The translations under genes and the position numbers were made by a program. A model generated the notes under the pieces. It did not search any database, had not been told where the DNA came from, and saw only the letters and a list, made by a program, of their open reading frames with translations. DNA of 63,999 nt, the filler included, from Chrysochromulina tobinii (taxonomy: Eukaryota): assembly GCA_001275005.1 (NCBI GenBank). It is 9 parts of 9 records of this genome, joined end to end, with 100 filler letters (N's around TTAATTAATTAA, not from the genome) between each part and the next. Parts side by side here need not be neighbours in the genome. Positions count along the whole stretch, not along the records: positions 7,155 to 19,079 come from JWZX01000512.1; 8 more parts are not named here. One strand, 5' to 3'. Within the stretch, counting starts at the first letter, position 1. The number at the start of each line of letters is the position of its first letter. Of the stretch, positions 9,982-14,784 are shown piece after piece.

Positions 9982-12900
9982 CTATGGATGATGGAAGTGG
10001 CCGTCCTCAGAGCTGTTGTCGGCCTGGAGAGTAGAAAGGGCAGCTTTCGCAGAGCCGAAAAACTGAGAGCCGATCAACTCAAGCGCGCCTTTCAGCGAGG
10101 AGAGCGCAGGTGGTGCAGTTGGTACAGATACGGCGTGTGACGGAGCGACGTAAGTCGCCAAACCACCTTCGGAGGCATTGTGTGGAGCAAAGTAGGTCGG
10201 GGAGGCATAGTTTGGCTCCGCATATGCGCCCGTATGGCTAATAGCATCCGCTCGACGCAGCGGAGTCGAGGGGCGCGAAGCGCGCAAACTGCCCTCCAGG
10301 CGCTGGAGCTCGTTCACGATAGTAGGGAACGTAGGCCGTTGACCGGGATCGGTCTGAAGGCACCGGGTGGTAAGCGTTAGGATGCCGGGTGGGCAGCCGG
10401 CCGCATTGCGCAGCTGGTCGAGCGGGGTGGCTTCACCTCTGACAATAATCGCCTTGAGCGCGCGCACAGCGTCCTTCGCAGACATTCCGACGGGCAGTTG
10501 CACATGGCTGTATGGTATGGACCGAGTCCCCATGTGTGTGAGCAGGCACCCGAAGCTCCACACGTCGGTGGGCTTGGCTTTTGCGCCCGAGGTGAGCGCA
10601 AAGGCCTCGGGAGCCATGTAGGTCGGCGTACCCGCGGGCCCCTCGGCCTGCCCGGCATACTTGGTGAGTGCGGTGCCAAAGTCGGCCACCTTGGCGTGCC
10701 AGTGCTCCGCGAGTAACACGTTGCCAGGCTTCAGGTCACGATGGACCACATCCTTCGCATGCAGGTGCGTCATGCCCAAGGCAATATCAAGGGCGATGAG
10801 GACGAGGGATGCCTCCCACGTGGCGAGCTGATTGCGCTGCCGGTGGTGGTGCAGCACATCGAGCAACGAGGCGGGCATGAGCTCCATCAGAATGCCCGTC
10901 TTCCCGTCGTCGTGTGCAATGCCCATGGTGAGGAGCACATTCGGGTGGTGCAGGAGCATCGTCAGCTCAAACTCGTTCAGGAGCTCTTGCAGGGCCGCCG
11001 GTGTGGTCGCTGCCCGTAAGCTCTTGATGGCGCATGGGATCGAGTTGTACACGGCCACTCGCACCTCGCCGAAGCTGCCCACTCCGAGTCGCTCTTTCAG
11101 CGTCAGCTCTTTCCAGCTCACGAGGTTGACCACGTGCATCAAGCCTCCTGCCACGCTCGACATCTCAATGCCGCTTCCGTTTGGTGGCGGCCGCGGCTGT
11201 GGCTGTGAGCTCGCGAGAAAGGTGTCCATAGTCGTGGGCTCACGGGCCTTAGTTGTGACATGCTTATTGATCTCCTTGATGATCTCGTCCAGAGTGCTGG
11301 GCGCCGTGAGCAACGTGCCGGGGTTTGGGATGTCATTGATCTTGCCGAGGTGCTTCTGCACATTCGATATCATCACCTCGGAATCCTGGTCCGTCAGCTT
11401 CGTCCACTGCATTTTGGGCCCGGGTAATCCTTCCTCAAAGACAATGGGTATCAGAGGGATTTTTCGCTCGATGGCGCAGTTGAGCTCCTTCAAGCACGGC
11501 TCGGACTCGTAGAGCGCTTTAGTCTTCAGGACGATCAGCACCTTGGCGTTTGCATGACGCCCGTCCAGACGCAGCATGAACACCTTCCAGTCGACTCCAA
11601 CGGGGACGTGCAGCCCGCTGAAGCATCGCACGCCGCACTGGTGGAGGATCCGGATGAAACCCGCCGCATAATACATGCCTGGCCCGGCGCCTACGCAATC
11701 CTGCTCACGGCGACCCGTCGCATACGAGATCACCACTTCGGGATAGTATTTTTCAAACGCGCCCTCCGGTATAAGTGAGCGAACAGAGCTCTTCACTTCC
11801 TGCGTCATCTTCACTGTGATCGAGGGCGGCACCATGAAGGCCTCAGCGACATGCTTGGCCAACCAAGCGGCCCTCTCCGCTTTTGCTTTCCGAGCTGCGG
11901 CCTTCTTGGCTGCCCTCTCTTCGTTGTCGCCATTTGGCGCTGGTGGGCGTACGTTATCGTTGAGCCGACGACGACGGCGCATGAAGGCCAGGGCGAGGAC
12001 AACTGTGATGATCACACCGACGACGACGCCGACGATGATGCCGATGGAGCCGCTCGTCTCGACTACACCGGCCGACGTGGGTGACATGGGCGGAGGTGGC
12101 GACGGTGAAGGCGGTGGCGGCGGCGGGACGTCTGCGATGGTGGGTGGCGTCACGACCGCGAGCACGGCAATCGAGACGCCGGTGACGCTCGCGAGCATGG
12201 CGGTCGCGCTGCTCGTGCTGCTCGTCGCGCTGGCCATCGCCGACTGCACCGAGGCCGCCGTCACCGTGAGCGTCTGAATGCTCACGTCGACGATGACGCT
12301 GCCCGGCGATATGGCCAACTCCACCGCCGATGGGTCGACGCCGGCTCGAGCCGCGACTGCGCTCTGCATCTGGGCTTGCACGCTCAGAGTGAACGAGGAG
12401 ACGTCGCCGCCGAGCTCGAGGGTGAATTCGACGAGGCTCATCGCCGGCGGCGAGGGCGGCGGCGAGGGCGACGGCGGCGAGGGCGACGGCGGCGGCGGTG
12501 AGGGCGAGGGCGGCGGTGAGGGCGGCGGAGGCGAGGGCGGCGGCGGTGGCGAGGGCGAGGGTGGAGGCGGCGATGGCGGCGGGGGCGGCGGCTGGGATGG
12601 CGGAGACGGTGGCGCGCGAGGCGGGGGCGGCGGAGCCTGCGGTGCGCCCGCTGGCGCAGATGGCGGCGGCGGCGAGGGCGAGGGCGGCGGCGGCGAGGGC
12701 GGCGGCGGCGAGGGTGAGGGCGGCGGCGGCGAGGGCGGCGGCGGCGGTGGCCGCGCTGCCCCGCACCACGTGCGCATCATCGAGATGAGCGGCGCTGGCG
12801 TGCTTGGCAGGCCGCTTCCGAGTCGCACGCCATCCAGCTGCGCCGGGCTGAGGGCGACGTCCCACACCAGCAGGTCCTTCATCTGGCCCGTTAACATCGG

Positions 12901-14784: not shown

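Follow-up and report, generated by a model that had tools for sequence, protein, structure and literature searches.

A 63,999-nt stretch of DNA from the haptophyte Chrysochromulina tobinii (GenBank assembly GCA_001275005.1; hereafter the window), in which short contigs are chained with N spacers, contains a gene whose product joins a lectin-like ectodomain, a transmembrane (TM) helix, a TIR domain, and a kinase. The open frame (9982..14784, minus strand, as are all features of this gene) runs for 1,600 amino acids (aa) from its first ATG with no internal stop, in the order two LamG domains, Pro/Ser stalk, one TM helix, TIR, and kinase; the true 5' end is uncertain. The initial annotation of the window, made from the sequence alone, had proposed such a single-chain fusion, and the stop-free frame with its Pfam domains bears this out. 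We read the product as a likely surface receptor whose chains, on binding microbial glycans, would gather into clusters, activating a predicted NADase TIR and letting the kinases cross-phosphorylate, and we put the probability of this reading at about one half.

This architecture is invisible in public annotation because the C. tobinii model there (P0223, KOO52767.1), identical to frame residues 1070-1407, is only 351 aa long, begins within the TIR, and is called a MAP kinase. Other close relatives also carry a Chrysochromulina label. The 539-nt intron of the public model (10563-10024) is doubtful: it removes the kinase C-lobe, and RNA-library contigs map inside it. C. tobinii is reported to be haploid with ~1 intron per gene (PMC4580454).

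TIR domain, kinase, and ectodomain

The TM helix (aa 914-935; 11980..12045; Kyte-Doolittle 3.15), which had been placed at ~12040-11980 and is confirmed there, is followed directly by five Arg. Under the positive-inside rule, this suggests that the C-terminal side, with the TIR and kinase, lies in the cytosol.

The TIR domain (aa 1012-1178; 11251..11751) has the fold of SARM1 and plant TIRs but belongs to a distinct subfamily. The motifs VVISY and CLKEL lie at 11736 and 11496, and a further motif quoted in the initial annotation lies at 11457. Pfam TIR_2 matches the fragment with 26.6 bits (E 9e-6), slightly under the curated cut-off of 28, and the TIR sequence alone had no match among solved structures, while the TIR profile gave one chance match. 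Fold comparison alone worked because the family is too divergent for sequence search. The AlphaFold model is confident (pLDDT 95.6), and both fold searches were topped by TIR domains alone: the Foldseek matches listed were TIR-bearing chains throughout, and the best of 48,161 chains in the other was the SARM1 TIR with an ADP-ribose (ADPR) adduct (Z 14.2, root-mean-square deviation 2.4 over 130 residues), with TIR-1, RPP1, Hydra TRR-2, and MyD88 scoring within ~1 Z unit of it. The TIR fold that had been suspected is thus well supported. A homodimer prediction scored 0.00, which counts neither for nor against assembly.

Relative searches confirmed 7 of 255 and 56 of 427 candidates, and the subfamily comprises 345 representatives (clusters at 50% identity) at E <=0.001. 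Of these, 150 were listed, and 86, picked for short length and spread, were aligned with the query. Glu1100 (11485..11487), which lies in the model in helix 101-112 after the third strand (88-93), is the sole invariant column in all 87 sequences, down to ~30% identity, and is kept in 196 of the 202 copies that cover the site when redundant copies are included. It occupies the catalytic position of TIR NADases, where the initial annotation had placed it within a CxxEL motif, and its standing as the single invariant column points to catalysis. In SARM1, the E642A mutant is inactive as an NADase, according to one report (bioRxiv 10.64898/2026.09.21.753143). Fold and Glu position both agree with the SARM1 and plant TIR NADases, so the domain is a predicted NAD+-cleaving enzyme. 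A strongly conserved loop after strand A further marks the subfamily.

The TIR could instead serve as a scaffold only, as in Toll-like receptors (TLRs) and MyD88, forming oligomers and recruiting cytosolic proteins with the same TIR and leaving the kinase as the sole enzyme. MyD88, Hydra TRR-2, and IL-1RAcPb TIRs do score within ~1 Z unit of SARM1, and soluble ankyrin and MIB-HERC2 proteins with a 60% identical TIR could be the adaptors. The invariance of Glu1100 argues for catalysis, and we consider a pure scaffold very improbable. Seven such soluble proteins (P0003-P0007, P0038, P0040), with ankyrin, MIB-HERC2, or BspA-LRR domains and ending in a ~60% identical TIR, may act in this system as sensors or adaptors in the cytosol.

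Across the subfamily, 65 of about 200 proteins were scanned for partner domains, and 13 had no match at all. The partners include leucine-rich repeats (LRR), C-type lectin, ankyrin, TPR, MORN, PARP, WGR, RING with an IIGP GTPase, GBP, COR, KAP NTPase, and PDZ, which are partners typical of defence proteins. Among the more distant carriers are C-type lectin-TM-TIR (P0060), LRR-multi-TM-TIR (P0129), multi-TM-TIR (P0104), and KAP NTPase-TIR-kinase (P0194) proteins. In viral contigs, 42 pattern matches to the TIR were obtained and none was confirmed.

The kinase (aa 1227-1495; 10300..11106; Pkinase E 1e-42) is an intact Ser/Thr kinase of the tyrosine kinase-like (TKL) type, as had been proposed for ~11105-10305. 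It retains the G-loop, Lys, helix-C Glu, HRD (aa 1348), DFG, APE, and the subdomain XI Arg. Among the best 60 of its 192 solved matches, all are RAF and CTR1 kinases plus one EGFR-labelled construct, with no IRAK. Altogether, the RAF/CTR1-like RD kinase and the absence of LRRs leave the label of Toll-like receptor in the initial annotation unsupported. Estimated ratios of nonsynonymous to synonymous substitution (dN/dS) are 0.21-0.34 for the TIR (against seven paralogues), 0.30-0.41 for the kinase (four), and 0.35-0.69 for the membrane-proximal domain; these values indicate purifying selection on TIR and kinase. The low-complexity C-terminal tail (9985..10299) varies among paralogues, some of which have a second TIR there.

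In the ectodomain, Pfam Laminin_G_3 (E 2e-33) marks two LamG/pentraxin-like domains (LamG1, 13723..14343; LamG2, 12760..13692) that are ~78% alike. The LamG part of LamG2 is modelled confidently by AlphaFold, and its Foldseek matches are the PAPP-A LamG and pentraxins, in keeping with the lectin-like ectodomain proposed at the outset. LamG2 is interrupted by an in-frame insert of 113 aa (13114..13452), placed in the loop where relatives vary most, that resembles the mannose-6-phosphate receptor homology (MRH) lectin domain. The insert matches Pfam PRKCSH_1 (E 0.003, 17.7 bits, under the cut-off of 23), the solved glucosidase II beta MRH structures 2lvx and 2n1h (E 0.001-0.002), and, best in the ESM Atlas, PRKCSH/CIMR clusters (0.88); the three matches are concordant, each of them sub-threshold. 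The mannose-binding residues of MRH domains are Gln, Arg, Glu, and Tyr; the Arg, Glu, and Tyr of the insert align with glucosidase II beta, and the Gln position is beyond the aligned part. AlphaFold did not fold the insert confidently (pLDDT <50, with no aligned relatives). We considered whether the insert is an intron and rejected this, as its frame is open and MRH-like; a similar module lies between other flanks in an RNA contig (run X10, record 16). The insert, a new observation of this analysis, strengthens a glycan-sensing reading without proving it.

Between LamG2 and the TM helix lie the Pro/Ser-rich stalk (12442..12750) and a membrane-proximal domain of ~104 aa (12130..12441) that is common to most family members. 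This domain has no Pfam match; we take it to be SEA-like from its pattern.

A family with different ectodomains and tails

The gene belongs to a family that shares a stalk/TM core and combines ectodomains and tails around it in different ways. We collected 27 related metagenome loci, several of which are the same gene in different assemblies; 11 encode TIR and kinase in one frame, 12 are TM-TIR without kinase, and four are cut. The tails are TIR-only, TIR-kinase, TIR-kinase-TIR (P0002 and L026, with the second TIR after the kinase), or kinase without TIR, and P0011/P0012 are TM-TIR-PDZ. Thus, the TIR-kinase pairing is not fixed. Midpoint rooting of a TIR tree with 54 rows places the TIRs that have a kinase (an 18-row group, support 89/93) inside TM-TIR-only ones, which suggests, under this rooting only, that the kinase was added. 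In four loci (L006-L009), a second stalk/membrane-proximal/TM gene on the opposite strand stands head-on beside a TM-TIR-PDZ gene, so family members cluster.

The kinase without TIR comes from RNA contigs of a TM-kinase relative (runs X5 and X10), in which the juxtamembrane and TIR block (11179..11960) is absent in frame and the TM is joined straight to the kinase linker (joint 11178-11961), so a TIR-less receptor kinase exists too. We considered alternative splicing as its source but rejected it because the skipped block lacks GT-AG ends and the joint holds five other letters. Since TIR-only and kinase-only tails share one stalk/TM core, TIR and kinase look like independent outputs that recombination has joined, not like a fused TLR-IRAK pathway.

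The ectodomains differ as well. L015 carries a galactose-binding-like (F-lectin) and an ALK/LTK glycine-rich domain; L008, a full-length paralogue, has Cys-rich repeats behind a hydrophobic leader; and a repeat of the beta-helix type stands at the end of L011, L014, L022, L023, and P0237, with weak support from Pfam in L023 and as judged by eye in the rest. Over 1,279 nt (12700-11422), L023 and the window do not differ; inside the stalk (12701-12745), L023 then changes to its beta-helix ectodomain. In a run test on eight sequences with 205 polymorphic sites, 12 of 28 pairs, which are not independent of one another, reached the floor value (p 0.0005), and the family tails are patchworks. Exchange of ectodomains and tails is likely, although metagenome chimeras can mimic it.

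The same locus was recovered from two other, independent assemblies (L001 and L002), 99.76% identical over 5.45 kb including downstream genes. Both keep stalk-TM-TIR-kinase in one frame, and each has its break within the stalk. The window differs from these two loci at 11 positions, all within a 62-bp tract (11355..11416) and each matching paralogue L003, and the window version of the tract is matched by an RNA contig. Eighteen public runs contain part of the stretch, 14 of them recorded as RNA, and four were examined by contig. RNA-library contigs match without difference at 11695-12004 (TM end to TIR start), 11277-11464, 10073-10286, and 9745-10052; none of the listed pieces spans the whole gene. 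Transcripts that split the ectodomain from the TIR-kinase part, a possibility raised with the initial annotation, were looked for, and none appeared among the RNA joints listed for the four runs. Run X1, which has the window tail letter for letter, leaves 13186-14349 (LamG1, MRH) uncovered, and 14738-15125 is almost bare in each of the four runs; contigs show presence and not absence, so neither gap was used as evidence.

None of the 11 loci that reach past the stalk has LamG, and among 22 LamG relatives none bears a Pfam TIR or kinase mark; the 15 of them that were examined in full lie beside beta-helix, trefoil, or galactose-binding cassettes, or on a TM tail without TIR. Thus, the exact domain string is seen in one assembly only. 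This raises the alternative that an assembly error in the repetitive stalk misjoined the LamG-MRH ectodomain to a real tail (or that L023 is the misjoined one), making the swap an artefact. Such an error would fit the lack of LamG elsewhere, the identity of L023 with the window up to a different ectodomain, and the breaks of both L001 and L002 inside the stalk. However, the unique LamG end and the stalk's unique part are only ~100 nt of repeat apart, the 45 nt of the window at the switch point differ from L023 at 11 places, and no stop interrupts the frame at the join. In three runs, RNA contigs also connect the end of LamG with the membrane-proximal domain by stalks of other lengths (joint at 12441-12734, with only 22 letters on the short side), and the different ectodomains of the clearly distinct paralogues L008, L011, and L015 are independent of this join. 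We regard a misjoin as unlikely.

Proposed function and alternatives

In the reading that we favour, the product would be a single-pass receptor with its ectodomain outside the cell and the TIR and kinase inside. A ligand on the LamG/MRH head, possibly a high-mannose glycan for the MRH-like insert, would cluster chains, and clustering would assemble TIR active sites as in SARM1 and plant TIRs. The assembled TIR would cleave NAD+ into a signal or deplete it, while the RAF-like kinases would phosphorylate one another and so pass on a second signal. The kinase may be an extra, optional output that some members acquired when TM-TIR and TM-kinase paralogues recombined, the Pro/Ser stalks may act as exchange points, and the purpose of the whole may be defence against viruses, parasites, or bacteria.

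Several points weigh against this reading. NADase activity and an immune role are predictions. LamG and MRH folds are no proof of glycan binding, and the MRH match is under curated thresholds. The link from LamG to the tail rests on one assembly, and the mosaic patterns were seen mainly in metagenome assemblies, where paralogues can be fused by error. Most pattern-recognition kinases are non-RD, that is, they have no Arg before the catalytic Asp; the kinase described here is of the RD type. Finally, hydropathy shows no hydrophobic leader at the first ATG, and no convincing upstream exon with a signal peptide was found. The N-terminal region (14362..14784) consists of a ~57-aa unit duplicated in tandem and then a His/Pro repeat; no signal peptide was seen there. 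The missing signal peptide, like the MRH-like insert and the family context, goes beyond what the initial annotation had noted.

Such an N-terminus might be expected of a young shuffle product that makes no working surface receptor, being mis-targeted, produced solely as a truncated TIR-kinase that starts downstream, or decaying. The odd duplication and absent leader would fit this, as would the start of the public model inside the TIR and the numerous family copies that are fragments or have a broken kinase (for example, the upstream copy in L014). On the other hand, 4.8 kb are stop-free, TIR and kinase are under purifying selection, the same tail is intact in other assemblies, and a small upstream exon could have escaped notice; we consider it quite improbable that the product is no working surface receptor.

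A real receptor with the same chemistry may also serve outside immunity: it would sense prey, mating partners, scales, or the coat of the cell itself, with the TIR and kinase relaying a signal for feeding or adhesion. Chrysochromulina are prey-catching mixotrophs, the kinase is RD and RAF-like, and LamG, beta-helix, F-lectin, trefoil, and glycine-rich cassettes also occur in stalked surface proteins without TIR or kinase (P0206, P0221, P0205). Against this, the TIR keeps the NADase Glu and defence-type partner domains, rapid shuffling fits conflict-driven genes, and haptophyte TM-TIR genes respond to virus in one study (PMC12489294). We hold a non-immune role to be doubtful, and defence remains the reading that we prefer.

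A broader proposal, which we advance tentatively, is that the family forms a combinatorial immune-receptor system. Lectin and other sensor cassettes would be recombined at Pro/Ser stalks onto a few membrane tails, which carry a TIR NADase, a kinase, both of these, or two TIRs. The exchange would be so rapid that one tail bears different sensors even in nearly identical strains. Such a diversifying repertoire would be wired to an uncharacterised, widespread eukaryotic TIR NADase subfamily.

How unicellular algae detect microbes and viruses is largely open, and the gene provides a concrete candidate receptor with two predicted enzymatic outputs in a culturable alga. It uses a TIR subfamily that Pfam barely detects and that is truncated in the public gene model, and the exchange of ectodomains, if real, is a way in which plankton diversifies its receptors. 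According to a 2025 paper (PMC12489294), no TIR-based antiviral system had previously been described in microalgae.

Other genes of the window and comparison with known systems

The gene lies on the piece at 7155-19079, between a fimbrin/plastin-like gene (15472-17946, minus strand; Pro-rich N-terminus, EF hands, four CH domains) and a PUB-domain gene. A PUB-domain segment of the latter is duplicated in tandem (7531-8306, ~390 bp, 96% alike), which is not an assembly slip because L001 and L002 have it too. Elsewhere in the window, a plus-strand frame at 20980-22638 has what we take to be a HET/TIR-like stretch followed by LRR_6 repeats and is another candidate defence gene, and a plus-strand frame cut by a contig end (5630-7054; no Pfam match at 1e-4) ends in a similar, presumably HET-like stretch. 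On the minus strand are a reverse transcriptase/RNase H-like frame resembling a DIRS-type retroelement (48061-49851; by eye, no Pfam match at 1e-4), a DNA gyrase B gene that is organelle-targeted or bacterial in origin (58801-61086), and a large frame (49955-53719) with a SPRY-like stretch and a small module common to the MIB-HERC2/TIR proteins P0005 and P0006 (by eye), which is another shuffled cassette.

In a literature search that left subscription journals mostly outside its reach, we found no account of this family, nor of any haptophyte receptor built as TM-TIR-kinase. The order TM-TIR-kinase, the lectin ectodomain, and the shuffling were likewise not found in print, whereas the idea of a single-chain receptor with TIR and kinase was already known. 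The system is thus not undescribed as a concept, as the initial annotation had suggested: choanoflagellate Kinase TLRs (PMC6040629) and Gephyrocapsa huxleyi ectodomain-TM-TIR proteins (PMC12489294), the only related accounts that the search yielded, precede it.

The choanoflagellate Kinase TLRs and Kinase TIRs combine TM, kinase, and TIR in one chain with an LRR ectodomain (Richter et al. 2018, PMC6040629). These proteins are predicted only, are proposed to bypass adaptor and IRAK recruitment, and are reported as unique to choanoflagellates. The present gene likewise places ectodomain, TM, kinase, and TIR on one chain, so single-chain receptors with TIR and kinase are not confined to choanoflagellates. 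Unlike their LRR-TM-kinase-TIR arrangement, it has a LamG/MRH ectodomain (others in the family differ) and the order TM-TIR-kinase (TIR-kinase-TIR in some members). Convergence seems a likelier reading than common origin. Clusters of kinase and TIR are found in bacteria too.

Closer to C. tobinii, G. huxleyi has virus-induced ectodomain-TM-TIR genes with the Glu, and their TIRs were superimposed on RPS4 and SARM1 (PMC12489294). Both are haptophyte proteins with an extracellular region, a TM, and a TIR that has the Glu in the same S-x-x-C-x-x-E-L context. Unlike the present gene, none of the G. huxleyi genes in 9 of the 15 rows of Table S9 is listed with a kinase (the other rows could hold one), and by eye the G. 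huxleyi TIRs do not have the long conserved loop after strand A. SARM1 and the plant TIR NADases (RPP1, RPS4, L6) share the fold (Z 14.2 and 13.4) and the Glu position, but they are only 13-21% identical and are cytosolic ARM-SAM-TIR or nucleotide-binding LRR proteins with no TM and no kinase.

Animal TLRs, with MyD88 and IRAK/Pelle, resemble the present gene in being single-pass with a juxtamembrane TIR and in having a kinase downstream in the pathway; they differ in that here Pfam finds no LRR, the TIR looks enzymatic, and a RAF/CTR1-like kinase is in the same chain. Plant lectin receptor kinases combine a lectin-fold ectodomain with a TM and a TKL-group receptor-like (RLK/Pelle) kinase and no TIR. 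The present gene shares their lectin-fold ectodomain, TM, and TKL kinase, its family resembles theirs in the diversity of ectodomains, and it differs by the TIR between TM and kinase and by its RAF/CTR1-like kinase. Finally, shuffled candidate receptors are known from brown algae (PMC3341825; PMC11378527), and, as in those candidate immune receptors, the sensor parts here appear to have been diversified by shuffling. The algal candidates are cytosolic and shuffle exons repeat by repeat, whereas exchange in the present family would involve entire domains, in frames that lack introns and with Pro/Ser spacers as the surroundings.

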